From assembly GCA_035480035.1 (NCBI GenBank), contig DATIID010000008.1, positions 74,401-138,400 on the forward strand: DNA of 64,000 nt, read 5' to 3'. Every line of letters starts with the position of its first letter. Position 1 is the first letter of the stretch. A model generated the notes under the pieces. The model had not been told where the DNA came from, did not search any database, and saw nothing but the letters and a program-made list of their open reading frames with translations. The position numbers and the translations under genes were made by a program. Origin of the DNA: Candidatus Saccharimonadales bacterium. Its GTDB lineage: Bacteria; Patescibacteriota; Saccharimonadia; Saccharimonadales; OMJO01. Positions 10,945 through 58,301 of this stretch are shown piece by piece.

Positions 10945-11904
10945 TTAATTACTTAGTCTTCTAGTCTTCTTGTTGGTTATTGATGAAACGATATATAAGG
11001 GGCGGTTTTGGGTTTCAACGTAAATTCGAGAAATGTAACTGCCTAGTACACCGAGCATAATTAACTGGACACCGCCCAGGAAAAACATTGATACCATGAC
11101 AAATGCCCAACCCGGTACTTCTTTGGCTGGGTCAAATATTTTGAGCCCGACCACATAAACAATACCCATGACACTTAAAAGCGAGACTGAGTAACCCAGC
11201 TTGGAGATAAACCTCAGCGGAGCTACCGAAAAACCAGTAATACCATCGACAGCCAACCGCCACATTTTCTTTAATGAATAATTAGTCTTGCCGTTCGGCC
11301 GACTAGCCCGGCTGTAATAAACTGTGGTCTGATTAAAGCCAGCATAGCTAATTAGACCGCGAATAAACCGCTGGTGTTCGCTAAATTTCTTGATTTGATC
11401 CAAGACTTTTTTATCAATTAAACGAAAGTCACCGACATTCGAGGGTATCGGTGTGTCTGACATTTTATTAATTAAGTAATAGAATAAGCCAGCTGTTGAT
11501 CGCTTAAAGATGCTATCAACTTTACGTGGATTGCGCTTGGCGTAGACAATATCAAACCCCTCACTCCATTTGCTTATCAATTTTTGGCAAACGGCTGGCG
11601 GATCTTGCAAGTCGGCATCCATCGTGATTGTGGCGTCAGCCTCGGAATAATCCATGCCGGCAGTGATGGCAATCTGGTGACCAAAATTTCTTGATAAATT
11701 CAAAACCGTTACCGAACTGTCGGTTTGGCTTAACTTGATAAGTTTTTTGAGTGTATCATCGGTACTGCCATCATTCACAAAAATGATTCCAAAAACATAT
11801 TGCCGATTTAATGATTTGGTGACTTTTTTTAACTCACTATAAAGTTTTGGCAAGTTTAAAGATTCGTTATAAGTCGGCAAAACTATATTGACGGTTTTCT
11901 TCAT
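10945..11904 (-). CDS. GT2 glycosyltransferase, polyprenol-phosphate sugar synthase (Dpm1/GtrB-like) with C-terminal TM helices
   Basis: VLPTYNE, FVNDGSTDDT and DADLQDPP motifs (GT2 DxD) plus two C-terminal TM helices typical of GtrB/DPM synthases. Confidence 0.65.
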   Translation of the reverse strand: MKKTVNIVLPTYNESLNLPKLYSELKKVTKSLNRQYVFGIIFVNDGSTDDTLKKLIKLSQTDSSVTVLNLSRNFGHQIAITAGMDYSEADATITMDADLQDPPAVCQKLISKWSEGFDIVYAKRNPRKVDSIFKRSTAGLFYYLINKMSDTPIPSNVGDFRLIDKKVLDQIKKFSEHQRFIRGLISYAGFNQTTVYYSRASRPNGKTNYSLKKMWRLAVDGITGFSVAPLRFISKLGYSVSLLSVMGIVYVVGLKIFDPAKEVPGWAFVMVSMFFLGGVQLIMLGVLGSYISRIYVETQNRPLYIVSSITNKKTRRLSN

Positions 11905-11906
11905 TG

Positions 11907-12602
11907 TTATCTAGTATAGTAGCCAGTGCCGAAACGCCACAATACCCGAAGTGTTGTCAAACCGTAGACAAAGCTCGGCCAAAACTTAATCGAAGAGATG
12001 GTTGAATTGTAATAACAGTCGGTGTCAACTTCGGTGATTTGGTATTTATTGGCGATTGTCCAAGCGATTAGCTCGCTATCAAATACAAAATTGTCCGAAA
12101 AAGTTTCGTAGGGAATTTTCTTGAGTAGCTTAGCATTGTAAGCCCGTAATCCAGTGTGGTATTCGGACAGCCCGGCACCGTAAACTTGGTTTTGGCAAAA
12201 AGTCAGGAACCGGTTAGCGGCATATTTCCACAGTGGCATACCATTCAATCGAGCGGTTTTAAAACGTGAACCTAAAACTAAATCAGAACCGCTATGTATT
12301 TGTTCAATCATTTCTGGCAAACACTTGGTGTTGTACTGGTCATCGGGGTGCACCATGATAATGACATCTGATTTACTGGCCTTGATGGCATTAAACAGGC
12401 TTTTTTGGTTAGCGCCATACCCAAGATTACGCTCATGCACGATAGTCTTGATGCCCAGTTTCTGACTGATGACTTTAGTCTTGTCTTGGCTAGCGTCGTC
12501 GCACAACAACAATTCGTCATAAACTTTTGGCAAATTTAAGTAAGTCGCCTTAAGCGTGTTGGCGGCATTGTAAGCCGGAAATATTATCGTAGTCCGGCCC
12601 AT
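11907..12602 (-). CDS. GT2 family glycosyltransferase
   Basis: IIFPAYNAANTL and LCDDASQDKT motifs; 231 aa. Confidence 0.55.
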   Translation of the reverse strand: MGRTTIIFPAYNAANTLKATYLNLPKVYDELLLCDDASQDKTKVISQKLGIKTIVHERNLGYGANQKSLFNAIKASKSDVIIMVHPDDQYNTKCLPEMIEQIHSGSDLVLGSRFKTARLNGMPLWKYAANRFLTFCQNQVYGAGLSEYHTGLRAYNAKLLKKIPYETFSDNFVFDSELIAWTIANKYQITEVDTDCYYNSTISSIKFWPSFVYGLTTLRVLWRFGTGYYTR

Positions 12603-13810
12603 GAGTTGTTCAATATAAAAGTTAATAACAGATAGAAATTAAACATGCCAGAGCCGATTAATAAAAATTTCATTGGGGAACTTAACTTTTTTTGCCGTTC
12701 GCGGTATTTAATCATTAGTATCAACAATATCAGTGGCAGAAAATCGAGGGCATAGCGATAGCCAATTTGATAGTAGCCAATGCCATAATAACCAAAGATC
12801 ATGACCATACTGACAGCCACGGCAATTAGCAAGTTGCGGGTAGTGTGGTTAAAGTCACTTTTTCGAAGATTAAATAGCCAGAGTAGGTATGGAGAACTGA
12901 AAAATATACTCATTCCCCAGGGATTATTTTTAATAAACGGCATTCTTAGAACCTCTGAAACGTGGTCGCGGAAGACTGGCAGCGGACCAGCCAAAAAAGC
13001 ATAATAAATATTGGCTGGAAAATGAACGATACTGTAGACGCCATAACGACGGGTGGCTAATAATTGATCCCTCAGATATTGGTAGCGATAGCCCTGCTCA
13101 AAGATCGAGTGGAAGCGCGCATAGTTGTAAAGCGCCAATATAAGACCAGCAACCACGACCGGTGAAATTATTTGCAACCAGGCTTTTTGCCATTGTTTAC
13201 TGTCTTTATAAAGCGACTTGGATTCCAAAATAAAGAATAGGGCAATCGGGGCGGCGCTAATTCGGGTTAAGGCTAAACCGGCGCAAAATAAACCAATCAG
13301 CCACCAACGTTTTTGACCAACGTACTCATAAAGCGCTAACAGTAGCAGTAAAACAGTTATAGCTTGGGCAAAGAACCAACTCATCGATAGTGCTATGATG
13401 CCAATGTAGGCACTCCCCAGCAGAAAGCCAAATGCCCAAATCGCACTATCTTCACCGTCATATTTTAGTTTTCGCGCCAGTTTGAACAACATTACCAAGT
13501 TAATCATTGTGATGACCACCTGTAGATATGATTGATAGAAAAACAGATGGAATAAACTGAATAACGCAACAAACGGCATTAGGATTATGGCCGGCAATGG
13601 GCCTTGTGGCCAGTAATATTTGTTTTGATAAACCGACCAGTCGTCAGTTGAACCTGGACCTGCTTGAGTGACATTCAGGCGGTGATGTAACATAGCATCC
13701 GATAGATAACTAAACTGCTGATGGTTTGTGGTGGACATACAGAGCACAATCGCCACATAAAAGATAATAATGGCGGGCGCGAATTTAAGTATTTTTGTTA
13801 TGCCAATCAT
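12584..13810 (-). CDS. Polytopic membrane protein, putative GT-C glycosyltransferase
   Basis: 408 aa, about 10 TM helices; lies between GT2 and PMT-like genes. Confidence 0.35.
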   Translation of the reverse strand: MIGITKILKFAPAIIIFYVAIVLCMSTTNHQQFSYLSDAMLHHRLNVTQAGPGSTDDWSVYQNKYYWPQGPLPAIILMPFVALFSLFHLFFYQSYLQVVITMINLVMLFKLARKLKYDGEDSAIWAFGFLLGSAYIGIIALSMSWFFAQAITVLLLLLALYEYVGQKRWWLIGLFCAGLALTRISAAPIALFFILESKSLYKDSKQWQKAWLQIISPVVVAGLILALYNYARFHSIFEQGYRYQYLRDQLLATRRYGVYSIVHFPANIYYAFLAGPLPVFRDHVSEVLRMPFIKNNPWGMSIFFSSPYLLWLFNLRKSDFNHTTRNLLIAVAVSMVMIFGYYGIGYYQIGYRYALDFLPLILLILMIKYRERQKKLSSPMKFLLIGSGMFNFYLLLTFILNNSWAGLR

Positions 13811-13881
13811 TTACCCCTTGGTCCCTTGGATTATATCATGCCAAAGAGATTAAGCTTGACCTGTTAATAATCCTAATCTTG

Positions 13882-15543
13882 TTAGTGTTCCGGTATCTGA
13901 TAAATTAATATTGAACCAGCCACTGTATCAATCGGATAAACCCCCCTGATTTTGTAGTTAACCTTATTAAGACCACTGTAATTAGCAATCGAAGCCGATA
14001 CGGCCAGCCAGCCGCCACGTCTGGGAATTCGCCGATTCAGCCAATGTTTATCAAACGGCGCAATGCCAATATCGATAGTCTTAAAACCGTAGTAGGCCGG
14101 CTCAGCCATACCAAAATAGATAATTGGTAAGTTACTAATACAGTGTTTGTCGGTGTAAGCTTTTAATTGTTTCAGACCCTGGCCCCAGTCCAAGTTTGAA
14201 TCTGCCAAATAACGGTAGCTGTTTTTCCGACCGCCAAACAGCTCGTTGGAATAAGCTAAGTAATTAGGATAAGCACTGGCAAGCGTAAAAACGTAATAGG
14301 CCGCTCCCAGAGCAAGCCACGAGTAACCGTGTTTATAATTTTTGATTAATAAATAGCCGGCTCGTCCCAGCAAAATAAACAAAAAAGGATAAATTACAAA
14401 AATTAAACGCAGTCCAACCGCAAACTGTGTCTCCATTACCAGTACAAGGGTAACGACTATTGGTAAGACCAAAAACATCATGGTGTTGGACAGTCGATAG
14501 TATTTATTTTTCTTTACATAAATTAAGCCGCAAACTGTAACCAGTAGAACAACCAGTGTACTTTTGATAATAAAACTGCCCGGGAAAAACCAGACTTGGC
14601 CACTATTAGAATAATAACCCCCCAGATACATTGGTTTGTAAGCACCGTAACGACGCAGCCCTTGGTAGAGAGATTCGGTAAAACTACCGGGTAATAAATT
14701 GGCATGCTGCCAAACTTTACTGCCTTGGATAACCAGATAAGTCAGCCAGACGGTAATAAATGCCGACAAGTAGACTAAGCCCAGATGATTAAAATAAAAT
14801 CTTAACCGTTCACGCTGGGTTTGTTTAAACTTAAGCGCCGCCGGTATAAGCAGAATTAAAAGCATCACAACGGCTGAAACGGCACTGATTTTAGTGGCCA
14901 GTGCTAGTCCTAAAAATAAACCGGCTAGTTTGTATTTCCAGCTGGCATGTTTTTGATAGGCTAACCACAGACAATAGGCCATTGCGGCTACAAACGCCGC
15001 CATTGGCAGGTCAAAGGTCACCAAATGGCTGAAGGCGATCATGCTAGGGTCTAGGCTGTAAAAAGCTAAGGCCAGTAGGCCAACGGTTGCACCAAACATT
15101 GATTGAGCCCAGAAGAAGATAACTAAGCCTAGTGACATTGCTAGTATGAGTACGGGCAAACGGCCCCAAAATACTATTTTGTCGGCGTCATTGCCGGGCG
15201 TGAAATAGAGTAAATGACGGCCAAAGTCGTATTCTTGATCATTTTTAAAGCTTGGCCAATTAGTATCAAGCTTCGGGTGAGCGACAAATTGTGCACTTAA
15301 ACCGCTTAGGTATTTGATAAGTACGGGGTGCTCGGAGTTGATTCGAAAGTCATCAGTCTGGACATAACTAATGCCGGCTGGAATATGTGAAACCTCATCG
15401 GCAGTGGCCGATTCATGCGAAGATTCAATCAGGCTAAGACTGGCAAAGATCCCAAGCAGTAAAACAACCAGAGATGGAATTATCCAGCGCCTAAGTTTGT
15501 TACCAAACTTATTGGTAAATTTTGATATTTTTTTATTGGGCAT
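13882..15543 (-). CDS. GT39/PMT-family (ArnT-like) membrane glycosyltransferase
   Basis: 553 aa; N-terminal TM followed by DE-containing first loop (ATADEVSH), 10+ TM helices and a C-terminal soluble domain, as in protein O-mannosyltransferase / ArnT-type GT-C enzymes. Confidence 0.5.
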   Translation of the reverse strand: MPNKKISKFTNKFGNKLRRWIIPSLVVLLLGIFASLSLIESSHESATADEVSHIPAGISYVQTDDFRINSEHPVLIKYLSGLSAQFVAHPKLDTNWPSFKNDQEYDFGRHLLYFTPGNDADKIVFWGRLPVLILAMSLGLVIFFWAQSMFGATVGLLALAFYSLDPSMIAFSHLVTFDLPMAAFVAAMAYCLWLAYQKHASWKYKLAGLFLGLALATKISAVSAVVMLLILLIPAALKFKQTQRERLRFYFNHLGLVYLSAFITVWLTYLVIQGSKVWQHANLLPGSFTESLYQGLRRYGAYKPMYLGGYYSNSGQVWFFPGSFIIKSTLVVLLVTVCGLIYVKKNKYYRLSNTMMFLVLPIVVTLVLVMETQFAVGLRLIFVIYPFLFILLGRAGYLLIKNYKHGYSWLALGAAYYVFTLASAYPNYLAYSNELFGGRKNSYRYLADSNLDWGQGLKQLKAYTDKHCISNLPIIYFGMAEPAYYGFKTIDIGIAPFDKHWLNRRIPRRGGWLAVSASIANYSGLNKVNYKIRGVYPIDTVAGSILIYQIPEH

Positions 15544-15561: not shown

Positions 15562-15651
<90 letters not shown>

Positions 15652-15686
15652 TAACAGGGGTAATTATAGCAATGGTTAGGTGTTAT

Positions 15687-16364
15687 TCAAAATTGGCTTT
15701 TCTGAGCGAATACTAATGCATTGACTGATTTGGCACCTGCTTGGCGCAAAACACGGGCAACTGATTCCAGCGTGCCGCCAGTGGTGACAATATCATCAAT
15801 TAAAATAATTGACTGGCCTTGAACATGCTTGGGGTGTTTAACATAAAAAGCCAATCCCAGTTGTTTTAAGCGCTCCTCTCTGTGAGCACCAACTTGTCGC
15901 GATTGGCCCAGACGCCCAACCAGTGACTCATAACTATAGCCAGTTTGACTAGAAATAGCTTTGGCTAGTAGTTTGGTGTGATCATAACCACGCATCCGTA
16001 AGCGTGACGTAGCCGTTGGTACCGGCACTAATAGTGGTGGTTTTTCAAATAACGGCAAAGTTGTGCTCATATAACTCGAGATTGCTCGATTAGCCGATTG
16101 GCCACGCTCAAACTTATAGAAATGCAGTAATTCTTTGGCTAGATCGCTGTACTCTGTTGCAACCCAAACGTGGTTAAGGCGACTTTTGGACCGACAGCGT
16201 TTACAAACTTGAAAATTTTCAGTAACCGCCTTGCAAATATAGCAACGCGACGGTAACGGCAGCACTAAACTGGCACAATTAGAACAGATCAAACTGCCTT
16301 CTTGGCCGCAAGACAAGCAGTTGAATGGGGCGATGACGCTTATAAGTCGCTCTAATACAAACAT
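15687..16364 (-). CDS. comFC: ComF-family protein (ComFC-like phosphoribosyltransferase, competence-associated)
   Basis: N-terminal 4-Cys zinc finger (CLSCG...CSNC...CYIC...CKRC) and C-terminal PRTase motif IILIDDIVTTGGT. Confidence 0.7.
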   Translation of the reverse strand: MFVLERLISVIAPFNCLSCGQEGSLICSNCASLVLPLPSRCYICKAVTENFQVCKRCRSKSRLNHVWVATEYSDLAKELLHFYKFERGQSANRAISSYMSTTLPLFEKPPLLVPVPTATSRLRMRGYDHTKLLAKAISSQTGYSYESLVGRLGQSRQVGAHREERLKQLGLAFYVKHPKHVQGQSIILIDDIVTTGGTLESVARVLRQAGAKSVNALVFAQKSQF

Positions 16365-16570
16365 GTTGTAATACTTATGTTGTAAATATCCACAGGCACG
16401 GTTGCACCTGTTGAATATACTAAGCTATACTGATAGGTAACAAAAATTGCAAGTCAAAAATGATCTAATCATAAGAGGGAAAGCCGTCATATTTATCATC
16501 TGAGTAGGTCGGCTAATTGGGGAACCGCTGTGGCGGACTACTCATATTAATAAAGTGGAGGGTAACAACG

Positions 16571-17044
16571 ATGGCACGCAAAAACCACGATGAGGACCTA
16601 TTAATGGAAGACGAATTAACTGCCGCCTTTTTAGGCGATGATAATGATGTGCCCGCCGCTGGCGATGATAGTGATGTGCCCGCCGAACCGTCGGATGAGT
16701 GGGACGAGGAAGAAGCTGTACCAGGCCAGTTAGCTGTTGATGTTTATGAAACCAAAGAAAAATTGGTGGTCAAGGCACGTACAGCTGGGGTTAACAAGAG
16801 TGAGCTAGATGTCAGTATTGCTGACAATACTCTAAGTATTCGCGGTACACTTTCAGCCGGTAACGAAGAAGATGTTGAGAATTATTTCGTTCAAGAGTGT
16901 TACTGGGGTGAATTTTCACGCAGTATTGCCTTACCGGTACCAGTTAAAGAAGACGAGATTGAAGCTGTCTTAAAAGATGGTGTCTTAACAATTAGTTTCG
17001 CTAAAGTTAAGCAAGACAGCGTTAAGAAGATACAAGTTCTCTAA
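16571..17044 (+). CDS. Hsp20/alpha-crystallin family small heat-shock protein
   Basis: Alpha-crystallin domain (AVDVYETKEKLVVKA...GVLTISFAK); start placed at the internal ATG (16571) preceded by GGAGGG RBS rather than the track start 16517. Confidence 0.75.
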   Translation: MARKNHDEDLLMEDELTAAFLGDDNDVPAAGDDSDVPAEPSDEWDEEEAVPGQLAVDVYETKEKLVVKARTAGVNKSELDVSIADNTLSIRGTLSAGNEEDVENYFVQECYWGEFSRSIALPVPVKEDEIEAVLKDGVLTISFAKVKQDSVKKIQVL

Positions 17045-17090: not shown

Positions 17091-17110
17091 TACATATGCT
17101 TGGAAAATAA

Positions 17111-17137
17111 AAACGCGCCGTGATTTTCGCGGCGCGC
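17111..17137 (-). terminator. Rho-independent terminator ending the minus-strand pilin operon
   Basis: GCGCCG-tgattttc-CGGCGC hairpin; on the minus strand it is followed by a GTTTTTATTTT run. Confidence 0.45.
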
Positions 17138-17160: not shown

Positions 17161-17577
17161 TTAGCCACCTGCAGTTTGTGTCTTGTTTAGGACGAACTTG
17201 ACGATTAGCTGAGCTAATGCCACGATGACCAAACCGACAATCGCGTACAGAATGGTATTCTTTGCACCCGAAACGGCACCAGCGTCACCGTTAGATGTAA
17301 CGTACTTAAGACCACCGATGATGATCATGACTACACAAACTAGACCAACAACTACTGAAAAGATGTTGATGGCGATTGTAACAATGTTTTGCACAACTGT
17401 TACAGCGTTGTTTGCTGAAGTACAGCTAGTTGCCGCCAGGTCAGCGTTAGCACCACAAGACAAGTGGTTAGACCCAGTTAGCACTGCAGCTCCGGCAGTA
17501 GCAGGCGCAGCCAGCGGTGTTAAGAACAAAGCCGACATTGTGCCTATCATTAATAATTTTCTAATTGCTTTTATCAT
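17161..17577 (-). CDS. VirB2/TrbC-like T4SS pilin family protein, paralog 1
   Basis: Signal peptide; variable Cys-containing segment; two hydrophobic helices separated by the short polar loop KYVTSNGDAGAVSGAKNT; conserved C-terminal ILYAIVGLVIVA helix. Topology is that of VirB2-type pilins. Confidence 0.55.
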   Translation of the reverse strand: MIKAIRKLLMIGTMSALFLTPLAAPATAGAAVLTGSNHLSCGANADLAATSCTSANNAVTVVQNIVTIAINIFSVVVGLVCVVMIIIGGLKYVTSNGDAGAVSGAKNTILYAIVGLVIVALAQLIVKFVLNKTQTAGG

Positions 17578-17657
17578 TTTATAGACCTTTCTTATTCTAT
17601 TGTATCTACTTATACCATAACCATTTTAGATATAGCAATAGTGTTTTTCAATACTAA

Positions 17658-18032
17658 TTATCTTATCTTGTTTAAAACGTATTTTACAATGCCTTGCGCC
17701 AAGGCCGCAACAATGATTCCAACTATGGCATAGATCAGGGTGTTTTTAGCACTCGCCACGGCATTTGGGTCGCCATTGGAAGTAATGTATTTGAAACCAG
17801 ATATGATTACCATAACGACGGCGACAAAGCCGATTACGACGGCGAAAAGCTGAACCGATTTGGCCGCAGCGCTTGGAATATTAGTACTACCGGCCGGAGC
17901 TGTACAACCAGTACCCAAACCCGCGCCATTACAAACTGCCTGTTGAGCGGCCGAAGCAGCCATAGCAACAACTGGTGTCAGTAATATGGTCGCGGTGATG
18001 AAAGCTATTACTAAGTTAATAAATTTTCGCAA
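17658..18032 (-). CDS. VirB2/TrbC-like pilin family protein, paralog 2
   Basis: Same architecture; loop KYITSNGDPNAVASAKNT; 2 Cys in the variable region. Confidence 0.55.
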   Translation of the reverse strand: MRKFINLVIAFITATILLTPVVAMAASAAQQAVCNGAGLGTGCTAPAGSTNIPSAAAKSVQLFAVVIGFVAVVMVIISGFKYITSNGDPNAVASAKNTLIYAIVGIIVAALAQGIVKYVLNKIR

Positions 18033-18047
18033 AATATTTCTCCTTTT

Positions 18048-18473
18048 TCATAGTATATGATTTAAAGCAAAGGCAATTGTAGCTTGAGCTGAAACTGCCA
18101 CGATTAATCCAACTACGGCGTAGAGTAAGGTGTTTCTGGCAGTAGCAACTCGTTGGGCATCGCCTCTGGAATTCATAAATTGAAAACCAGAGTACAAGAT
18201 AACTGCCACTGATGCTAGACCAATTATCCAACTGAGTATTAATGACGCCTTGATTATAACGCCGTTATTGCCAGCAAACGGGTTGGCTGAATATGACTTG
18301 CAAGCAACCGAAGCAGTCGCCGAGCCTTGGCACACAGGCAGGGTTTTCGCGGTAGCACCTCCAGATGTCGGGCGGTTAAACGGATTGAAGGCCAGGGCTT
18401 GGCTAGACTGTAACAATACAAAGCTAGTGGCTAGTAGCAAGATTAAGGCAAGGCTTGTTTTAAAGTATTTCAT
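18048..18473 (-). CDS. VirB2/TrbC-like pilin family protein, paralog 3
   Basis: Same architecture; loop FMNSRGDAQRVATARNT; 2 Cys. Confidence 0.55.
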   Translation of the reverse strand: MKYFKTSLALILLLATSFVLLQSSQALAFNPFNRPTSGGATAKTLPVCQGSATASVACKSYSANPFAGNNGVIIKASLILSWIIGLASVAVILYSGFQFMNSRGDAQRVATARNTLLYAVVGLIVAVSAQATIAFALNHIL

Positions 18474-18763
18474 GACGTTACCTTAGGAATGACAAACGCT
18501 ACGATTGAATAGGCCATAATAGCCACTACTAAACCAACGATGGCATAAAGAATCGTATCTTTGGCTCTGGCGGTTGCTTGTGGATCGCCTCGCGACATGA
18601 CGTATTTAAAACCACCCAACGCGATAATAAATACGGCGATGGCGCCTAAAGTCGCCAATATGGCGGTGACAACATTGTGAATGGTAGCTGAACTGGGAGT
18701 AGCACTCGGCAAGCTTTTGGGACGGTTTATATATACGGCTACCAGATAGATTAGAGCGTTCAT
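18470..18763 (-). CDS. VirB2/TrbC-like pilin family protein, paralog 4 (short, no Cys-containing variable region)
   Basis: 97 aa; helix-loop(KYVMSRGDPQATARAKDT)-helix core only; overlaps paralog 3 by 4 nt and paralog 5 by 1 nt (translational coupling). Confidence 0.5.
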   Translation of the reverse strand: MNALIYLVAVYINRPKSLPSATPSSATIHNVVTAILATLGAIAVFIIALGGFKYVMSRGDPQATARAKDTILYAIVGLVVAIMAYSIVAFVIPKVTS

Positions 18764-19164
18764 TAAGTACCCCCTAGTCGATTGCCAATAAATCCAACGG
18801 CCGAGGCGGCAATGACTGCAATAACTGCGCCGATTAAAGCATTAACTATAGTACGACGGGCTTCTGCGGTTTTATCTGGTTCGCCCTGGCTGATTAGATA
18901 AGTAAAGCCGCCCCATATAACAAAGGCAACTGCTACCAAGCCGGCAATTCTCATGACTATATCCAGAGCCGCTAAACCGATTAGCCAATATTGTCCCCAG
19001 CTATGAATAGTTACTTCACATTTACCAGTCAAAGCACTCTTGGAATAGGACAAATACTTGTACCACCTTGGCAAAGCAAAAAAGTTGCTAGCTTTACTAC
19101 AAGTTACTGCCGGGGCGCCAAAAAACCGAAGTTGAGTTAGGGTATACGTCAGAAAAGCGTACAT
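18763..19164 (-). CDS. VirB2/TrbC-like pilin family protein, paralog 5
   Basis: 133 aa; loop YLISQGEPDKTAEARRT; 2 Cys in the N-terminal region. Confidence 0.5.
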   Translation of the reverse strand: MYAFLTYTLTQLRFFGAPAVTCSKASNFFALPRWYKYLSYSKSALTGKCEVTIHSWGQYWLIGLAALDIVMRIAGLVAVAFVIWGGFTYLISQGEPDKTAEARRTIVNALIGAVIAVIAASAVGFIGNRLGGT

Positions 19165-19165
19165 C

Positions 19166-19840
19166 CTAGAAGATACCTCCCGGCACTAACCACTGAATGA
19201 ATGACCAGAAGAAACCATAGGCTACTAGCGCGAAGACGGCATTAGCGATCTTGCGACGAGCTGCGGCCACGGCATTGGGGTCGCCACGAGAAGCTGAGTA
19301 CTGGATCCCGCCGACCACAATCATAATGGTGACGAGTATGCCGACGCCGATCCCCAGAAAATCAATTGCCGGGAACAACCACCTATTAAAGATCCGGCAA
19401 CTGGTTGGCGAATCACTAGCCCTAAGCAAACACGATCGTTCGCCTTTTCTATCTGCTAGTTCGGCCACGGAAACTGGAGTGCTGCTATTGCCCCCGCCGT
19501 TGCTGTTATTGCTACTGTTATTACCAGTTTTATTTCCGCCACCTTTATTACCACCAGTAGCAAAGACACCAGATGTACAACTGGCTGGCTGATAAACAAA
19601 GCCGCCGCCGCCGTTTGCTAGCTGTAATATGTAACATTTGTTAGCTACCGGATAGCCGCCGGTCGTCACCGGCCAATGACCACAACCACCAACGCCACTA
19701 GGAGCAACTAGCGATTGATAACAGCGCGGCGCGGCGGCAAATACTGATTGAGTATTTAATATTATTGCGGCAAAGGGCATAAGAATAGCCGCTAAAATAA
19801 CAATAAGTGCTTTTAGGTTTTTATTTTGTTTCATTTTCAT
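19166..19840 (-). CDS. VirB2/TrbC-like pilin family protein, paralog 6, with extended Cys-rich and G/N/S-rich N-terminal domain
   Basis: 224 aa; signal peptide; 6 Cys; low-complexity GGNKGGGNKTGNNSSNNSNGGGNSS tract; then conserved helix-loop(QYSASRGDPNAVAAARRK)-helix core. Confidence 0.45.
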   Translation of the reverse strand: MKMKQNKNLKALIVILAAILMPFAAIILNTQSVFAAAPRCYQSLVAPSGVGGCGHWPVTTGGYPVANKCYILQLANGGGGFVYQPASCTSGVFATGGNKGGGNKTGNNSSNNSNGGGNSSTPVSVAELADRKGERSCLLRASDSPTSCRIFNRWLFPAIDFLGIGVGILVTIMIVVGGIQYSASRGDPNAVAAARRKIANAVFALVAYGFFWSFIQWLVPGGIF

Positions 19841-19969
19841 CTGTCTTGATTATAATTCTGGTTTTTAGCTTAAGCAAGTCTATTATACAATGATTCTCCA
19901 AATCCAAGTTCGAAATCAAAATGCATAAGCATTTTGCAGCCGTTTAAATTTGTTGCTAGTATTAAAGAT

Positions 19970-22924
19970 ATGAAAACGGCTAATCCCGTTCGCTATAGGC
20001 TAATTGTGGCTATTTTTTTGTCGCTTTTTGGGTTTACGTTTGTAACTCAATTGATTCATCCCCAAACTGTTCAAGCGGTCACCAACTGTGCTCACTGGGA
20101 TAGAAGTGTCATTCTTTGTCCCGGCGGCCAACTTTTTTACGACAACCAGATTGATGGTAACTACACTTATGTCCTTCAAGGTGATCCCGACAGTTGCGAT
20201 GACACAATTAAGAAGCTTACAAATAACAATACTCAAGCTACTCTACATACCTCGGTACCAGATCCGGTTAATGGTGGCTGTAAAGAGACCACTTCCGGTA
20301 TAACGCTTTCTTTAAACGCACAGTCCAGAATGCCGTTTGTGTATGTGGACGCGACACACATTATTACCAGTGACGGTAAAACTTCCTACACTTATAACAG
20401 TGCCTTAAAACTGTTCGTCGAAGTCGGCGGCGACAAATGTAAAGACACACTTAAAGTAATTGCTGGCGGACCTAATGGAGCCAGCGCGACCGTACAAGTT
20501 ATCGCCAGCACTGGCGGAGCAAATACTGCATACGATAAATGGGCTCAAGAACTAGCATTCGACAAAACTAAAAGACAAAGCATAAGTGGTTGTACCAAAT
20601 ATACCAACGTTGCGGCCAATACCTACAAAGTCAGTACCCAATTTTTAAAACAACCGTCGATAGCAAACCCGGCTATCGCTGGCAGCAACGGTGGTGGTAG
20701 TAATGGTGGTACAGGCGATGGTAGCGGCGGCGGCGGTGTCAATTTTGATTGTGAAGTAAGGTTTTGGAACCCGTTAACTTGGATACTTTGCCCGGTCGTT
20801 GAACTACTTCAAGGTTTCTTAAACTGGTTTGACGTGCAGATTGACGACATGTTGGAGGTTAATCCCAATTATATTGACACCACGAAGACTGAAGGCAAGG
20901 GCTTTTATCAAGCTTGGTCGTCAATTCGTACTATTGCGTTGGTGTTGATAGTGATTTTCGGATTGGTCATGATAATCTCGCAAGCAGTTTCGGTCGGGCC
21001 GTTTGACGCTTATACTATCAGAAAGGTTTTACCCAGGTTGGTGATAGCAACAATCGGCATTGCCTTGTCTTGGAATTTAATGATAACGGCGATAAATCTA
21101 ACTGGCGATCTGGGCGGTTCGATCAGAGGTATCCTGAGCGCACCATTTGATAATCTGACGCTACCGTCACTTGGGCAGGGCGCCACTGGTATATTTGCTG
21201 CCGGTATTGGTACATTTTTAATCGGTACCAGCTTTTTGGGTGCCGTTAGTCTACTATTAACCGCCGTTTTGGCAGTTTTAATTGCGTTCTTTGTACTAAT
21301 AATTAGGCAAATTGTAATAGTGTTGCTGATCATCTTGGCCCCTATTGCCATCGCCTGTTATGTTTTGCCGAATACTTCCAGGGTCTGGAAACTGTGGTGG
21401 GAGTCATTTAGTAAGGCCCTGCTGATGTTTCCCATGATTGTAGCCTTAATTGTCGCCGGACGAATCTTCGCCAAAGTATCGGCGGTCGACGGCGATGTGC
21501 TTCACCAGGTTATCGCTTTCATTGCTTATTTCTTACCGTATTTCCTAATCCCAGCCACGTTCCGTCTAGCTGGTGGTGCTTTATCGACCATTGGTGGCTA
21601 CGTCAACAATCAGGGTAAGGGCGGCTTTGACCGACTTAAGCAATTCCGTCAACAACAGTACAAGACAACTATGGATAAAAACCGGGGGGGTAACCGTCTG
21701 CTTGGTGGTAGAACTGACCCGACGACTGGTAAAGCCATTAATTTTCGCGGTAGAATTAACCGGGGCATGCAAAACTCTACTTTGTTGCCAGGTGCAATAG
21801 CAGCTGGGGGTGTAGTTCGAGGAGTAAGAGATGCCCGTGGACAAGTTAAAGCAATTAGGCGAACAGCTGACTTTGCAGCCGCACAGGAAATTATGAAAGA
21901 TCCAGCTTTTGGAATGCTAGGTGGTAACGAACATAACATGGTGGGTATGCTTGGTACATCTCGTTCGGATATAATTACTAAACTTAGAAGCACAGATTCT
22001 TATAAAGATGCCAGCGACCAAGACTTGAACGAATTAGCTGACACTATCGAGCAACTTCAAAGGGTTCATGGTGCCAAACCATTACAAATTGCCGCTTTCA
22101 TGCAAAAGGCGACCAGCAAGAATGCCTTTAACGAAGCCGGCCAAATGGAGAGAGAAATTGCTGAAGTGGCTGGTGGTGATGGAATCCTGGCCAGCAATCT
22201 AATAGCCCACGCCCGCTCGGCTCAAACCCAAGCTGGCCGAGCCGATAATGTTACTGCTTTTGGCGAGCAGTTTGGGATTGTTGACGATGTTATGCACAAT
22301 CGTATTAAAATCGGCGAACGCACCGAAATTGATCAAGAGACTGGAAAACCAAAGCAAGTACCAATATATGACACTACCAAGAATCCCGAGCAAGTCCAGG
22401 CTGCCGCCGGTCAACGCGTCATACGTGGAGCTTTGGAAACTACTAGTCCAGGCCAAATCTTAGGTGGTACACAAAGAAGTGTTAGCAATTTCATGGCGGA
22501 ATTAGGCCGGCAGTGGGCAGATGCCATTGATCATGGCACAGTAGATGAAATGACGAATGTTGGCGCCAGAATGGCCACCTTCAGGAATGCCATGGGCGGC
22601 GCCACGCCTCAAGTCAGGGAAGAAGTATCAAAAATGCTAGATTCAGCCGGTGTCAACCTTGACTCTGACGAATCTTCTGACCAACAATTAGCCAGAAGGA
22701 TTGCCGACGCTAACATTAGCAGGAGCGGAACACCATTATCTGAAACTGATCGAATTAAGAGTACAAGGACTGTTATGGAAGAAATTCGAACCAAGGCCGG
22801 CCTGTACGATATGGGCAATCGCGAATTAACGCCCGAGGAACGTGCCAATCAGCAGATGATGATGAGTGGTGGTCAGCCACCTGGAACCGGTATCCCGCCC
22901 TCGGGGAACCCCGACGAAAGATAA
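19970..22924 (+). CDS. VirB6/TrbL-like polytopic T4SS membrane protein with N-terminal Cys-rich ectodomain and long C-terminal extension
   Basis: Track ORF starts at TTG 19934; the ATG at 19970 gives a canonical signal peptide (MKTANPVRYRLIVAIFLSLFGFTFVTQLIHPQTVQA). About 270-aa Cys-rich region; Gly-rich linker; about 6 TM helices (aa ~320-560); about 440-aa hydrophilic tail; position is divergent from the pilin operon. Confidence 0.4.
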   Translation: MKTANPVRYRLIVAIFLSLFGFTFVTQLIHPQTVQAVTNCAHWDRSVILCPGGQLFYDNQIDGNYTYVLQGDPDSCDDTIKKLTNNNTQATLHTSVPDPVNGGCKETTSGITLSLNAQSRMPFVYVDATHIITSDGKTSYTYNSALKLFVEVGGDKCKDTLKVIAGGPNGASATVQVIASTGGANTAYDKWAQELAFDKTKRQSISGCTKYTNVAANTYKVSTQFLKQPSIANPAIAGSNGGGSNGGTGDGSGGGGVNFDCEVRFWNPLTWILCPVVELLQGFLNWFDVQIDDMLEVNPNYIDTTKTEGKGFYQAWSSIRTIALVLIVIFGLVMIISQAVSVGPFDAYTIRKVLPRLVIATIGIALSWNLMITAINLTGDLGGSIRGILSAPFDNLTLPSLGQGATGIFAAGIGTFLIGTSFLGAVSLLLTAVLAVLIAFFVLIIRQIVIVLLIILAPIAIACYVLPNTSRVWKLWWESFSKALLMFPMIVALIVAGRIFAKVSAVDGDVLHQVIAFIAYFLPYFLIPATFRLAGGALSTIGGYVNNQGKGGFDRLKQFRQQQYKTTMDKNRGGNRLLGGRTDPTTGKAINFRGRINRGMQNSTLLPGAIAAGGVVRGVRDARGQVKAIRRTADFAAAQEIMKDPAFGMLGGNEHNMVGMLGTSRSDIITKLRSTDSYKDASDQDLNELADTIEQLQRVHGAKPLQIAAFMQKATSKNAFNEAGQMEREIAEVAGGDGILASNLIAHARSAQTQAGRADNVTAFGEQFGIVDDVMHNRIKIGERTEIDQETGKPKQVPIYDTTKNPEQVQAAAGQRVIRGALETTSPGQILGGTQRSVSNFMAELGRQWADAIDHGTVDEMTNVGARMATFRNAMGGATPQVREEVSKMLDSAGVNLDSDESSDQQLARRIADANISRSGTPLSETDRIKSTRTVMEEIRTKAGLYDMGNRELTPEERANQQMMMSGGQPPGTGIPPSGNPDER

Positions 22925-22987: not shown

Positions 22988-24364
22988 ATGTCAGAACTTC
23001 CTCCTGATACAAAAACTATAGAAACACCAACAGTCACCGCCGAAATTCCAACTGTTCCGATGCAAGAAGTTAATGCTGGTCCTACAGAAGCATATATATT
23101 AACCGACGAGCCTGGTGTGGCTTGGCTAGGCATGAAACGATGGGTTACGGCATTTAGAGCAGGTATGGCTGAGCATGTCATCAATCAGTCCGACATTAGC
23201 CATCGAGTATCTAGTCATTCAGCCGAATATGCCCTTCAAGAAGATCCTGTCCATACGGCGGCTCTTTCGACACTTAAGAAACCAGGTAGCGTTAGGGTAA
23301 TAAAGGGTGGTTTTAATCTTGAGAGTGGCGATTCCAAAATTAAGTTTGAGCCTGGCATTGTACCAAAATATCATTCAGAAACTGGGGAATTTACAGGAAT
23401 TGATTTTGATTTTGGGCTCAACATAAATGATAGGAACAAAAAAATTAAAGATGGGATCGACGCCGAAGCAAGAGGCGAGTCCCAAAAAAGAGATGTAGAC
23501 AAGGAAGAAGTTTATATTCTCTCCGAACCCGTAGAACGACGCCGGGCCGAGCGGCCCGTCACCTGGCCAGAACGCCGAGCTTCTCTATTTCGAGCACGCC
23601 AGGTTAGAAAAATGAATAATTTACGAATTTCAAGTGGTCGTTTGAAAAAAGACTATTCCACAAAAGCCCAAGAACTTGGCAGTATAGCGCCACGAGATCT
23701 ATTCAGTGCCGAAAGAGGAATGCATGGGCGCAACGTTAGGACGTTTGGCGAAAGACGCGATTATGCTAAAGCCTATCGACAACAACGTAAAAACACTGAG
23801 GGTGGCATAATTAAACGAGCCCTGGGATTGCCAGTTGGGTATGACCGAATTCGCGAAACTACTGAACAGGCCATTCGCGGTGAGTCCCCTATGCAAAAGC
23901 TAAATATTCGTCGACAAGAGAGCGCCAAAGATAAAGCCAAAGGTCTAAGAGAAGATGTTGAGGTGCTCCGCGCACAACACCAGCACGCCAAAGGACGACA
24001 ACAAAAACGTAACAACTATATGGATGAAATAAAGCGTAGGAATACTTACTTTGCGTCGCAACCGGCAAACATTGACAAAACCGAGGCCGAGTTTGTAGCT
24101 GCTTCACCTTTGGTCACAAAATTAAAGAAGCTATCAGCTCGCGCCACTAAATCGCGTGCCGCAAAATCGACGGTTGATATTGCTAGACTAAACCATCAGA
24201 TTCGTAGCCAAACCGACAGTGATAACAAACAGGTATTAGCCGAGAAATTGACCCGGACTCGACAAAAAAAGGCCGGCTTAGCTTCGAAGGCTTACAACCG
24301 ATACAAGGATATAAATCGACGCCGAACTGAAACCGGTAAGGTTGATGTAACCGGCTGGATGTAA
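22988..24364 (+). CDS. Hypothetical highly basic, low-complexity (K/R/E-rich) protein within the T4SS-like locus
   Basis: 458 aa, no TM, predicted largely disordered/charged; no recognisable domain. Confidence 0.3.
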   Translation: MSELPPDTKTIETPTVTAEIPTVPMQEVNAGPTEAYILTDEPGVAWLGMKRWVTAFRAGMAEHVINQSDISHRVSSHSAEYALQEDPVHTAALSTLKKPGSVRVIKGGFNLESGDSKIKFEPGIVPKYHSETGEFTGIDFDFGLNINDRNKKIKDGIDAEARGESQKRDVDKEEVYILSEPVERRRAERPVTWPERRASLFRARQVRKMNNLRISSGRLKKDYSTKAQELGSIAPRDLFSAERGMHGRNVRTFGERRDYAKAYRQQRKNTEGGIIKRALGLPVGYDRIRETTEQAIRGESPMQKLNIRRQESAKDKAKGLREDVEVLRAQHQHAKGRQQKRNNYMDEIKRRNTYFASQPANIDKTEAEFVAASPLVTKLKKLSARATKSRAAKSTVDIARLNHQIRSQTDSDNKQVLAEKLTRTRQKKAGLASKAYNRYKDINRRRTETGKVDVTGWM

Positions 24365-24423: not shown

Positions 24424-25653
24424 GTGCTAATGGCTACGTATAAGGTTATCCAGGATATTGAGGCCGAGGACAAGCTGTTGGGGCCGTTAACGCTACGGCA
24501 GTTTATCTATGCTGCGATTACAATCGTTATTGGTTTTATTATCTTTAAAACCCTGGGTTCTGGTGTTTGGTATGTTGCTCTTGGATTGGCACCACCGATG
24601 TTTTTCTTTGGACTACTGGCGGCGCCATTTGGCCATGATCAATCGTCAGAAGTTTGGATGCTTGCCAAAGTTCGTTTTTGGATAAAACCACGAATTAGAA
24701 TCTGGGACCAAGACGGCGTCAACGATTTGGTGACCATTACCGCCCCGAAACCACCGCCAAACTTAACTAATGGTTTGTCTCAGCCCGAAGTTCAAAGCCG
24801 ATTAGAAGCCCTGGCCACCACCATCGATAGCCGTGGTTGGGTGGTTAAAGATTTGGGCTATGACCCATTTGCCACCAATCAAACCGATCGTTTAGTTGAT
24901 GAATCGCAAACACTTAAAGAAGCGTCGCCAGTTGATATGTCTCAAGTGGTTGACGTTATGGATGAAAACACCAACCCAACGGCCCAAAACTTTGACAAAT
25001 TAATGGCCGCGGCTGAGCAATCCCATCGCCAGCAAATTGAGGCCTCGATGCAAAAAGCTATCCAAAAACCGGGTGATAAGTCCAAGACTAAAACCCAACT
25101 TGAAGAGGAAGCCCAGAAACCAGCGCCTGATTTTTGGTTTATGCGTGAAGATCACTCGCCAACCGAACCAGGCATTTCAATTTTCGATAACCCGGCTGTG
25201 GTAGCACCTGGTTCAAGGGACCTTGATTTGCCATATCAGCCAACCGATGAAGAGCAAAAAATTATCAACCGCGCCAAAGACGAACAAGCTCAACCACTAC
25301 CAATTATGTATCACTTAGCCAGGCTGGATGATGTTGAGCAACCCGAGCCAGAACCTGAACCGGCGGCACTGAAACAACCGACGCCGTCCAATATAGCAAT
25401 GAGCAGTTTAGACGTAAAATTACCGCCGATTGTTACTAAAAAAACACCAGATACCAGCAGCTACTCAACACCAAATACTGGCCCTCCCATAACTGCCCAA
25501 ACTGATATAATGAAAAAGAAGATCCCCTCGCTGCCATTCAACAATGATTTGAATGTCGAAACAATTGCGCGCGAAGCCAATCGTGAGACAGTCAAAGTTG
25601 ATACTTTAGGTGACGAGGTGGTGATTAATTTGCATTACAAGGGCACCTCTTAG
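24424..25653 (+). CDS. Membrane-hairpin protein (VirB3/PrgI-like N-terminus, tentative) with long acidic Pro/Glu-rich C-terminal tail
   Basis: N-terminal 2-TM hairpin (FIYAAITIVIGFIIF / VALGLAPPMFFFGLLAAPF) directly upstream of VirB4, as VirB3 homologues usually are; C-terminus contains a PEPEPEP tract. Confidence 0.3.
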   Translation: MLMATYKVIQDIEAEDKLLGPLTLRQFIYAAITIVIGFIIFKTLGSGVWYVALGLAPPMFFFGLLAAPFGHDQSSEVWMLAKVRFWIKPRIRIWDQDGVNDLVTITAPKPPPNLTNGLSQPEVQSRLEALATTIDSRGWVVKDLGYDPFATNQTDRLVDESQTLKEASPVDMSQVVDVMDENTNPTAQNFDKLMAAAEQSHRQQIEASMQKAIQKPGDKSKTKTQLEEEAQKPAPDFWFMREDHSPTEPGISIFDNPAVVAPGSRDLDLPYQPTDEEQKIINRAKDEQAQPLPIMYHLARLDDVEQPEPEPEPAALKQPTPSNIAMSSLDVKLPPIVTKKTPDTSSYSTPNTGPPITAQTDIMKKKIPSLPFNNDLNVETIAREANRETVKVDTLGDEVVINLHYKGTS

Positions 25654-25685: not shown

Positions 25686-26648
25686 ATGAATCCAAACTCT
25701 AAAACACCAAGTAGTCGACCAACCTCAGGCGCAGTTGGGGGCCAGTATTATGGTGACATTGGTAAATCTCCTTCGCCAATCGCTGGTCCCACACCAGCAG
25801 CCGGCCATGAGCCGCCCCGCCCGCAAAATTATTCTCAGTTTACGCCTATGGGTCAGGCCGCGCCTGCTCCGGGTGCTCCCGGTGGACCACGGGCGCCCTT
25901 GCCGCCACACGTCATAAACCCGAACAGCACTCAAAACATGTTGCAAATTGCCGAAATTCGCGACGGTTTGGTAATTATGAATGATGGCTCATTCCGCTCA
26001 ATCGTTATGGCTCGATCAATTAACTTTGATTTGATGAGCCCGGACGAGCGTGAAACGATTGAATATGCTTATCAAGGTTTTTTGAATTCGTTGCATTTTC
26101 CGGTTCAAATTTTCATTCGCACTGAACGAGTTGATATTCGTCCTTATTTGGAACGGCTCGATAATTTACGGCGGCAACAGGACAATATGTTATTGGCTCT
26201 ATTGATGGAAGACTATATAGGCTACGTTGAAGAGTTGGCCAGCCAAACCAACATTATGGACAAGAAGTTTTATTTAGTTGTGCCGTATTTTCCGGTCGCC
26301 GATATTCAAAAAGCGATTACTCAAAGCAAAAATTTCTTCACTGGTTTAATTGATATGTTTAACAAAAAAGCGCGACGTGTCACCATCAACGAGGCTGAGC
26401 TAAACAATGCTAAGGTGGAACTGCGCGAACGGGTTCAGGGTGTTTTGGCTGGTTTGCAACAAGCCAGTATCAAAGCCTTGCCGCTTGATACCCAAGAATT
26501 GATCGAGTTGTACTACGACATTTACAACCCAGACACTGCTACCCGCCAACAGCTCAAAAACTTTGACGGTATTAGCGAACCTGTGGTGACCAAAGGCGAG
26601 GGCGAAGCGCCCCAACCAGGACTAACTCCGGAGAATAACAATGGCTAA
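25686..26648 (+). CDS. Protein with Pro-rich N-terminus and VirB4 N-terminal-domain-like region (possible 5' part of a split virB4)
   Basis: Segment DGSFRSIVMARSINFDLMSPDERETIEYAYQGFLNSLHFPVQIFIRT resembles the start of Gram-positive-type VirB4/TraE ATPases (recalled, not searched); its stop overlaps the next ATG by 8 nt. Confidence 0.3.
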   Translation: MNPNSKTPSSRPTSGAVGGQYYGDIGKSPSPIAGPTPAAGHEPPRPQNYSQFTPMGQAAPAPGAPGGPRAPLPPHVINPNSTQNMLQIAEIRDGLVIMNDGSFRSIVMARSINFDLMSPDERETIEYAYQGFLNSLHFPVQIFIRTERVDIRPYLERLDNLRRQQDNMLLALLMEDYIGYVEELASQTNIMDKKFYLVVPYFPVADIQKAITQSKNFFTGLIDMFNKKARRVTINEAELNNAKVELRERVQGVLAGLQQASIKALPLDTQELIELYYDIYNPDTATRQQLKNFDGISEPVVTKGEGEAPQPGLTPENNNG

Positions 26649-35751: not shown

Positions 35752-35777
35752 TGTCTTTATTGTACTTGAGTCGTTAC

Positions 35778-36869: not shown

Positions 36870-37115
36870 ATTACTACTCCTTTATATAAGTTAGTTGTAG
36901 GATTAATAAACCCTGTGGAAACACTGGAAAACTTTTGCTCAACGGGGTTAGAGTGACAACCAAGCTGTGAACAATACTGTTTAATAGTTTGGTAAAAGAC
37001 TCGGAAAACTGATGGGTTTTCCCACACCACAGCAACACCAAGAACATGCCTGTGTATTAATCGATGGATTTGCCCACAAGTATGCCGTACATTATCAACA
37101 ACTTTTACCCATACT
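36870..37115. promoter_or_regulatory. dnaA-dnaN intergenic region with DnaA-box-like 9-mers (second oriC module)
   Basis: TGTGGAAAC, TTTTCCCACA, TTTGCCCACA and TGTGAACAA variants of TTATCCACA/TGTGGATAA seen by eye; AT-rich. Confidence 0.4.
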
Positions 37116-44158: not shown

Positions 44159-44222
44159 TTACTTAAAGTATACAAGAGTCTCTCATGGCCATAATCTTTA
44201 TAACAACTGTTAAACTATAATA

Positions 44223-45203: not shown

Positions 45204-45222
45204 CTTGTCTACATGCCAATTG

Positions 45223-45948: not shown

Positions 45949-46051
45949 GAACTAATCTTTTCAAGAGTATAACACCCCCTTGACATTACATTAACATAAT
46001 TCCCCAAGGTGTTTATTAAAGGCAATGAGTCAACTATAATAACCTAAAGCT

Positions 46052-49973: not shown

Positions 49974-50006
49974 ACCGGTTATTATATAGTAGTTTAACGA
50001 CGGTCG

Positions 50007-52577: not shown

Positions 52578-52679
52578 ATAGTTTATGATACCAATAAGAG
52601 GTGAGCGTTGCTAGAGCGTCACTTAAAACTCAGTAAACACATTAAAAGTCTCGACACGTTATTTGTTAACATGAGTTAA

Positions 52680-54185: not shown

Positions 54186-54193
54186 ACCCACGA

Positions 54194-56490: not shown

Positions 56491-56567
56491 ATTTTTATTT
56501 TATAACAATAAAGTTATACGCCAAGTAAGTATAACAGATATGTAAAGGCATCAAAAGAGATAAATTA

Positions 56568-58292: not shown

Positions 58293-58301
58293 GGATTAGA
58301 C

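Follow-up and report, generated by a model that had tools for sequence, protein, structure and literature searches.

The window analyzed here is a 64,000-nucleotide stretch of a Candidatus Saccharimonadales genome (assembly GCA_035480035.1, contig DATIID010000008.1, positions 74,401 to 138,400), in which six tandem minus-strand genes, o1 to o6, stand divergent from a Gram-positive-type type IV secretion system (T4SS) cluster encoding a VirB6-like protein, PrgI, a split VirB4, a protein of 1060 amino acids (aa), and a lysozyme (Table 1). With a probability of roughly 0.6, we take these genes to encode VirB2/PrgF-type pilin-like subunits of this chromosomal, origin-proximal T4SS, which would not be interchangeable with one another and among which o1 would be the major subunit. 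The assignment is directly supported by family membership, hairpin prediction, gene context, positional orthology across related genomes, the conservation of cysteines, promoter, and terminator, and a group of gene fusions.

All six open reading frames (ORFs) lie where a preliminary description, made from the sequence alone, had placed them, and their transcription runs from o6 first to o1 last. When the six cores were aligned, they shared the consensus GGxxYITSxGDPxxxxxAKNTIxYAxIGLVI, with S-x-G-D/E-P at the hairpin turn, which agrees with the loop and C-terminal consensus given in that description. Identity of the paralogs to o1 is 25-46%. The regions ahead of the core contain 2, 2, 2, 0, 2, and 6 cysteines from o1 to o6, exactly as counted before, and o1 has one extra cysteine within helix 1. 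By inspection, o1, o2, o3, and o6 begin with a putative leader (charged n-region, hydrophobic h-region, AxA-type site). The earlier assumption of a mature N-terminal region left after signal peptidase cleavage would thus apply to these four types and not to o4 and o5, which have no signal-peptide-like N-terminus. A start-codon artifact was considered for o4 and o5 and rejected, as both ORFs start right after the upstream stop and their short N-termini are kept in orthologs. Two further details required correction: the N-terminal region of o4, described as of zero length, in fact comprises ~30 residues ahead of the core, and overlapping junctions number two rather than three, namely o5/o4 (1 nucleotide (nt), TAATG) and o4/o3 (4 nt, ATGA). 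The remaining genes are separated by gaps of 1 nt (o6/o5), 15 nt (o3/o2), and 80 nt (o2/o1).

Each of the six proteins exceeds the gathering threshold (26.6 bits) of the T4SS pilin family PF18895, with scores of 30.0-49.4 bits (E 5.6e-7 to 4.7e-13). None reaches the cut-off of 27.9 bits for PF04956 (TrbC/VirB2), for which o4 scores best (25.7 bits), followed by o2 (20.2 bits), with the rest weaker or absent; Ti VirB2 itself, as a reference, scores 64.9 bits. Precomputed PF04956 annotation is present in about half of the o1 orthologs, and a clan-level relationship of the array proteins to TrbC/VirB2 appears likely. The top NCBIfam match of all six was NF045849, the pilin-like conjugal transfer protein Mbov_0395 of a Mycoplasma integrative and conjugative element, which was matched over its whole 80-residue model at 18-39.5 bits, below the cut-off of 40 bits, so that the six are related to that family but not members of it. 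Hydropathy profiles of all six proteins display two hydrophobic helices joined by a short charged loop, as in VirB2-like proteins, and the loop is net positive (2-4 lysines and arginines vs. 1-3 acidic residues). AlphaFold2 (AF2) models of o1 and o5, built with ortholog alignments, contain the same hairpin with a predicted local distance difference test score (pLDDT) above 90. The o1 model consists of a leader helix, a low-confidence segment of 30 residues, and the hairpin (H57-94/H99-137); that of o5 (model pLDDT 82.6) starts with a short helix and further contains a small beta element around the second cysteine and the hairpin (H57-91/H96-130). The helix-loop-helix core noticed earlier was therefore borne out. 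As expected of VirB2-like genes, the array lies 6.8 kb from VirB4 and is transcribed divergently from a TrbL_3/VirB6-like gene. Overall, the label "VirB2-like pilin" is upheld by the PF18895 match, the predicted hairpin, the T4SS neighborhood, the identity of the organism, and cysteine pairs that are strongly conserved over 32 related arrays, with the link to canonical VirB2 reduced to the family or clan level.

A profile of 90 core sequences aligned end to end with PrgF of pCF10 in hhalign (64 columns, probability 44.6%, E 2.3e-4), placing the family motif S-x-G-D-P on S35-N-D37-D38-P of PrgF, and the controls gave 3.4% for reversed PrgF and 0.2% for ATP synthase subunit c (AtpE). This is suggestive of a link between the array proteins and PrgF; membership in the PrgF family is not claimed, because a profile built from o4 only matched more weakly than the pooled one. 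A regular-expression search of the six N-termini found no class III type IV pilin leader (G|F/M-x-x-x-E), and none of the six proteins has an LPXTG sorting signal. A tblastn search with o1 returned no match among 72,556 plasmids, so the family is undetected on catalogued plasmids at such sensitivity.

The comparison with other pilin arrays was based on all ORFs of 80 related loci (L001-L080), which were searched with a hidden Markov model of the six cores. Exactly six tandem genes were found in 31 loci and in the window, with a shared length pattern of ~140, 135, 130, 97, 128, and ~200 aa, and these 32 arrays were used for the ortholog statistics. The order o6-o5-o4-o3-o2-o1 is invariant among the related loci, the o6 type always coming first. 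In an all-vs-all BLAST search, the best cross-genome match was located at the same position in 976/992 cases for o1, 903/992 for o4, 991/992 for o5, and 976/992 for o6. The best matches of o2 and o3 were often o1 or o2, which indicates that o1 to o3 are one subfamily. Some of the five-gene arrays are cut by the edge of the locus; others (e.g., L040 and L041) are complete with o5 and o4 fused, and thus still possess six cores. Amplification is limited to the o1 type, with two copies in seven-gene arrays and four in nine-gene arrays, and only these extra copies set the nine- and seven-gene arrays (L039:587-4935, L065:402-5020; L017, L019, L034) apart from the six-gene form. The o4-type gene of L039 and L065 encodes ~220 aa vs. 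the usual ~97 aa. Identity among orthologs is 40-66% in the core, highest in o1 (66%), and only 20-33% ahead of it. For the ectodomain of o6, an exhaustive search of 1.84 billion representative proteins recovered only the protein itself, one partial relative, and one low-complexity match, and no domain was assigned. The arrays of the related loci, a kind of comparison that the preliminary description had recommended for Candidate Phyla Radiation genomes, resolve into six conserved positional types in a fixed order.

Cysteines stand out in the variable N-terminal regions. Conservation reaches 97% for C52 of o1 (whose first cysteine is spread over alignment columns), 81% and 97% for C34 and C43 of o2, 100% and 97% for C48 and C58 of o3, 94% and 91% for C22 and C49 of o5, and 100% for both C137 and C148 of o6, where the remaining cysteines vary. 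The pair forms a short C-x5-20-C loop, longer in o5, about 11-21 residues ahead of the core. Exactly two pre-core cysteines were counted in 29/32 orthologs of o1, 25/32 of o2, 20/32 of o3, and 28/32 of o5. An excess of even cysteine counts is an established signature of disulfides in exported proteins. Over all positions, 144 non-zero counts were even vs. 20 odd, in sequences that are related by descent. We therefore rest the argument on the conservation of the cysteines against a diverged background rather than on the raw even counts, and infer that the pre-core pairs form disulfides and that the N-regions are exposed, much as the preliminary description had supposed.

The two leaderless members appear to belong together. 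Within the first 12 positions, o4 and o5 orthologs mostly have no basic residues and no hydrophobic leader. Six loci, as well as protein P0142, encode o5-o4 fusions of ~226 aa with two cores and four helices, in which o4 follows on from the C-terminus of o5. The fusions use at least two unrelated linkers, which suggests that they arose independently. Since fusion places the o5 C-terminus and the o4 N-terminus on one side of the membrane, it also suggests that o5 and o4 are neighbors in the assembly.

The arrangement of the operon points to a special position for o1. In most genomes, neighboring genes between o6 and o3 overlap or directly adjoin one another, and a gap of ~9 nt divides o3 from o2. 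The spacer between o2 and o1 is always present, with 49-122 nt in the 32 arrays, vs. 0-15 nt or overlaps at the other junctions. In nearly all loci, a TTGAnn-N17/18-(TGn)TATAAG/A box recurs 26-38 nt upstream of the o1 start together with a ribosome-binding site (RBS), AAGAAAGG; a consensus scan of the window spacer also gives TTGAAA-N17-TAAAAT at 17651-17623. Downstream of o1, a GC-rich hairpin followed by a T-run was found in 26/30 related loci. We thus consider o1 to have a putative promoter and terminator of its own. At the other end of the array, many related loci carry a -10-like box 5-15 nt ahead of o6, and the o6 mRNA may be leaderless or near-leaderless when transcribed from the candidate TATAAT promoter of the window.

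The same gene arrangement has been studied genetically in Southlakia epibionticum ML1, where six PF18895 genes, SEML1_0014-0019, lie between a VirB6-like gene and Hsp20, and all six were scored growth-defective and then essential by transposon sequencing (Wang et al., 2023, Cell; PMC10633639). The window matches SEML1_0001-0022 gene for gene, with Hsp20, ComFC, and tRNA-Ser on one side in both genomes, and a VirB6-like protein, PrgI, split VirB4, a large protein of unknown function, lysozyme, and recF-dnaN-dnaA on the other. In the window as in S. epibionticum, the six PF18895 genes have Hsp20 on one side and a divergent VirB6-like gene on the other, and are located near dnaA. The pilin size classes of the two also resemble each other, including one member of ~100 aa. 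By contrast, the window species is a different one, its VirB4 being only ~80% identical to the nearest database relatives. The first two pilin genes of S. epibionticum encode 132 and 185 aa, and judged by these lengths alone, the o5-like and o6-like genes may come in a different order in that species. By orthology, the window pilins would be required for epibiotic growth. The possibility that several pilins are used together, raised in the preliminary description, fits better than simple diversification, because there are six conserved positional orthologs and each is individually essential in S. epibionticum.

On these grounds, we propose that each protein is a two-helix hairpin of the cytoplasmic membrane, with the positive S-x-G-D/E-P turn in the cytoplasm and both the N-region and the C-terminus outside; predicted leader cleavage (in four types) and the o5-o4 fusion (for o4 and o5) argue for this topology. 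Insertion of o1, o2, o3, and o6 would proceed via a cleavable Sec leader, and the leaderless o4 and o5 would probably be inserted as a pair. VirB4 would drive extraction of the subunits from the membrane, and they would be stacked on the VirB6-like protein, the expected assembly platform for pilins, to yield a tube or a short pilus that would span the wall in the direction of the host bacterium. Hairpin turns would line the lumen, and the disulfide-clamped, fast-evolving N-loops would lie outside, as in solved VirB2 pili and the PrgF model. The bulk subunit would be o1, because it is the sole amplified type, its core is the most conserved of the six, and it has a predicted promoter and terminator of its own. 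The products of o6-o5-o4-o3-o2 would be co-translated, low-copy, specialized subunits for priming, base, or tip, among which o6 would be the best candidate for host contact via its large, lineage-specific, multi-disulfide, hypervariable domain. Topology, disulfides, polymerization, stoichiometry, and the roles of single types are the parts of this scheme that we infer. Taken in its most specific form, a heteromeric VirB2-type filament or conduit of six obligatory types with a separately transcribed major o1, five minor subunits, a leaderless o5-o4 unit, and o6 in contact with the host, the proposal is a tentative one that we regard as possible rather than probable. To our knowledge, a set of minor pilins like those of type IV pili and type II secretion systems has not been described for any T4SS, and no T4SS other than that of Saccharibacteria is known to be essential for its own bacterium.

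The array adds no new kind of system; its comparative anatomy turns the vague notion of "divergent pilins, perhaps for variation" into testable predictions. If the proposal is correct, o1 should greatly outnumber the other five, and the types should be unable to replace one another; o5 and o4 should be adjacent in the assembly; the juxtamembrane cysteine pairs should be oxidized and needed for function; and the o6 ectodomain should track host specificity. Direct testing is possible because S. epibionticum is genetically tractable.

Several observations weigh against the proposal of a pilin-like assembly with o1 as its major subunit. We know of no pilus or tube seen for any Patescibacteria T4SS. 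Fold searches with the models gave only generic helical hairpins, and no solved pilin ranked significantly; a profile search of all Protein Data Bank chain sequences with the 90-sequence core alignment retrieved no pilin; and hhalign detected no similarity of the core profile to Ti VirB2 or F TraA. Against PrgF, the probability dropped to 4.9% with the o4-only profile. The o1 promoter and terminator and the stoichiometry are read from sequence, and the division into one major and five minor types could instead be one into three o1-like types and three others. In addition, the ORFs scanned, which cover part of the window, included no recognizable Dsb or VKOR gene, and the leaderless o5 would have to export a ~55-residue, cysteine-bearing N-tail.

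Part of this evidence would also suit proteins that are pilin-like by descent and act as non-polymerizing membrane accessory subunits around VirB6, VirB3, and VirB4, whose ectodomains would make contact with the wall or the host. In favor of this reading are the lack of any pilus sighting, the generic nature of the hairpin fold, and the two leaderless members, which in some loci are fused as a pair into a four-helix protein and look more like subunits of a membrane complex than like a polymerizing pilin; six distinct essential types would also be unusual for a homopolymeric filament. However, the family model and turn motif align with proteins that are shown or strongly supported to polymerize, TrbC (weakly) and PrgF, and an o1 gene that is separately promoted and terminated, most conserved, and amplifiable fits a high-copy structural subunit. 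We consider the accessory role unlikely, though it is one of the two main rivals of the proposal.

The paralogs might alternatively be variants of a single pilin that can stand in for one another and are maintained so that the exposed surface varies, for host-range switching or escape from host defenses. The authors of a survey of Patescibacteria proposed that such arrays may give a versatility resembling antigenic variation (Quinonero-Coronel et al., 2025; PMC12102498). The low identity of the paralogs (25-46%), ectodomains that evolve much faster than the cores, the o6 ectodomain with no detectable homologs besides itself and one partial match, and o1-type copy numbers of 1-4 across genomes are all consistent with this idea. 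By contrast, the six types are ancient and positionally conserved rather than recent lineage-specific duplicates, and individual essentiality of all six S. epibionticum orthologs would be unexpected if they were redundant. The genes are probably transcribed together, their junctions overlapping or nearly abutting, and the analysis turned up no switching machinery, silent cassettes, or invertible elements. Moreover, two of the types differ in architecture, being leaderless and, in some lineages, fused. Variation is thus quite an improbable explanation of the array as a whole; it may apply to the amplified o1-type copies alone.

Secreted T4SS effectors are a still weaker candidate. T4SS substrates are recruited from the cytoplasm, and neither Sec leaders nor membrane hairpins are expected in them. 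The proteins are small, some have signal peptides, they are encoded beside a T4SS, and a TM7x transcriptome preprint termed the equivalent genes "putative effector genes"; but each protein has, at its C-terminal end, two long hydrophobic helices and a conserved turn, and all six match the pilin family PF18895, so that we regard such a function as very improbable. Holins or bacteriocin/immunity peptides, which tandem small two-helix membrane proteins can be and which had been named as a possible better match, have next to no probability here: no PHROG family was matched at E<=0.01 by any of the six, leading us to reject a holin identity, no holin or bacteriocin family appeared in Pfam or NCBIfam whereas PF18895 was significant for all six, and the surrounding genes belong to a conserved chromosomal T4SS, none of them being a phage or bacteriocin gene.

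Pilin arrays of this kind have been on record since 2018. McLean et al. (bioRxiv 10.1101/258137) describe an "array of 4-6 small signal-peptide proteins" in TM7x and other Saccharibacteria, and the 2025 survey counts 441 VirB2 arrays, each of 2-11 genes, among 383 Patescibacteria assemblies, with a mean identity of 25% (PMC12102498). The window array shares with theirs the family, the tandem layout near virB4 and dnaA, and the ~25% paralog identity. The passages of these two sources that were consulted contain no report of fixed positional types, the o1 promoter, the o5-o4 fusion, leaderless members, or conserved cysteine pairs. The window array is a further example of a published feature, and the comparative details are the addition. 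Several divergent tandem VirB2 copies are also found in the T4SSs of Bartonella and Anaplasma phagocytophilum, host-dependent organisms, as cited in the survey (PMC12102498). Those copies are thought to be immune-evasion variants, whereas the window copies are conserved, ordered, and architecturally distinct types.

A single-pilin system for comparison is the Gram-positive, MPF-FATA-type T4SS of Enterococcus faecalis pCF10. PrgF is a VirB2-like subunit essential for conjugation that was modelled on a PrgH (VirB6) pentamer, with its S-N-D-D-P turn lining the lumen (December 2025 preprint, bioRxiv 10.64898/2025.12.18.695078). Like the array proteins, PrgF(B2) is a two-helix hairpin with a charged turn, and its gene immediately precedes those for the VirB6-like protein, PrgI, VirB4, and lysozyme; like o4, whose architecture is the nearest of the six to PrgF and TrbC, it has no leader peptide. 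Unlike the array, PrgF is encoded by a single 75-aa gene and has no ectodomain and no cysteines; the similarity is weak (44.6% and 4.9% with the two profiles); and PrgF serves plasmid conjugation, while the Saccharibacteria system is chromosomal. VirB2/TrbC proteins such as the Agrobacterium T-pilus subunit and RP4 TrbC resemble the array in being small, leader-bearing proteins with two hydrophobic helices and a charged loop that are encoded in a T4SS operon. Gram-negative systems of this type normally have one pilin gene, no cysteine-pair loop, a VirB5 partner, and a diderm envelope. The array differs from them also in falling below the PF04956 cut-off and in its lack of hhalign similarity to Ti VirB2 or F TraA. 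By analogy only, type IV pili and type II secretion systems combine one abundant subunit with 4-5 low-copy paralogs that are encoded together and carry disulfide loops in their exposed parts; the fold and pathway of these minor pilins are unrelated, and the likeness is one of logic, not of ancestry.

Table 1. Array genes, regulatory signals, and T4SS genes of the window, with o5-o4 fusions in related loci (positions count from the first letter of the window unless a locus is given).
Feature	Position	Strand	Description
o1	17161-17577	-	138 aa; last gene; leader (AGA|A), C-x10-C loop, hairpin core; PF18895 45.3 bits
o2	17658-18032	-	124 aa; TTG start after AAGGAG RBS (direct reading); leader, C-x8-C loop, hairpin core; PF18895 49.4 bits
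o3	18048-18473	-	141 aa; leader (ALA|F), C-x9-C loop, hairpin core; PF18895 30.5 bits
o4	18470-18763	-	97 aa, shortest; lacks leader and Cys; conserved LP motif in short N-tail, then hairpin core; PF18895 46.3 bits
o5	18763-19164	-	133 aa; no classical leader; conserved C..FFGLPxWYKYL..C module before hairpin core; PF18895 37.7 bits
o6	19166-19840	-	224 aa; leader, ~115-aa ectodomain (6 Cys, G/N/S-rich linker), hairpin core at residues ~155-220; PF18895 30.0 bits
Terminator-like hairpin	17104-17137	-	GCGCGCCGCG..CGGCGCG then TTTTTATTTT; just downstream of o1; read directly; fold energy -17.6 kcal/mol
o2-o1 spacer	17578-17657	-	promoter-like TGgTATAAG 17609-17617; possible -35 TTGCTA 17633-17638; RBS AAGAAAGG 17586-17593
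TATAAT -10 box	19849-19854	-	perfect; 8 nt upstream of o6 ATG, no RBS; in 93-nt divergent intergenic region 19841-19933
VirB6/TrbL-like polytopic membrane protein	19934-22924	+	996 aa; weak PF04610 TrbL; PF19590 TrbL_3 on record for NCBI product; counterpart SEML1_0013
PrgI (VirB3-like)	24424-25653	+	PF12666 E 2e-10
VirB4 N-terminal ORF	25686-26648	+	320 aa; weak TraC_F_IV match
VirB4 P-loop ORF	26641-28563	+	640 aa; TraG P-loop PF19044 E 3.9e-27
Cell-wall hydrolase (VirB1/PrgK-like)	31752-33140	+	phage tail lysozyme domain, PF18013 E 1.1e-26; counterpart SEML1_0006
o5-o4 fusions	L013:529-1209; L021:1883-2689; L032:1843-2496; L040:2226-2918; L041:2180-2860; L044:1219-1899; P0142		o4 joined to o5 C-terminus

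In the T4SS cluster, VirB4 is split into two ORFs that overlap by 8 nt, and the same two-gene layout is listed for S. epibionticum (SEML1_0009, SEML1_0008). Proteins ~80-83% identical to the window VirB4 are found in many metagenome-assembled genomes (MAGs) of Candidatus Saccharimonadales and Saccharibacteria, and the o1 and o5 proteins are recorded at NCBI as hypothetical proteins of a Saccharimonadales MAG. Three plus-strand genes within the cluster, at 22988-24364, 28585-31767, and 33173-34687 (458, 1060, and 504 aa), had no Pfam or NCBIfam match at the thresholds used. The same scans recognized neither a coupling protein nor a relaxase in the cluster, and the S. epibionticum T4SS has been described without a recognizable relaxase (PMC10633639). 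Directly after the cluster follow recF, dnaN, and dnaA (34690-38483, minus strand), so that the T4SS and the pilin array adjoin the replication origin, as the 2025 survey notes for other Patescibacteria (PMC12102498). A YidC insertase is encoded just past recF-dnaN-dnaA (39329-40267, plus strand). On the other flank, at 15562-17044, tRNA-Ser(tga), a ComFC-like phosphoribosyltransferase with a double zinc ribbon, and Hsp20 occur in the order of SEML1_0022, SEML1_0021, and SEML1_0020, the last of which (Hsp20) was scored essential in S. epibionticum (PMC10633639).

Further away, two regions (10945-15543 and 40756-60278) hold large cell-envelope glycan clusters, which encode GT2, GT1, and GT4 glycosyltransferases, a Wzm/Wzt-type ABC exporter, a Wzy_C ligase-like protein, two PMT_2 (ArnT/PMT-like) transferases, methyltransferases, and a UDP-glucose dehydrogenase. 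One of the PMT_2 genes (13882-15543) is close to the pilin array, and glycosylation of the Ser/Thr/Asn-rich pilin ectodomains is conceivable. Finally, a minus-strand gene at 54194-55897 encodes a 567-aa protein with FG-GAP repeats that is possibly a surface adhesin-like protein.

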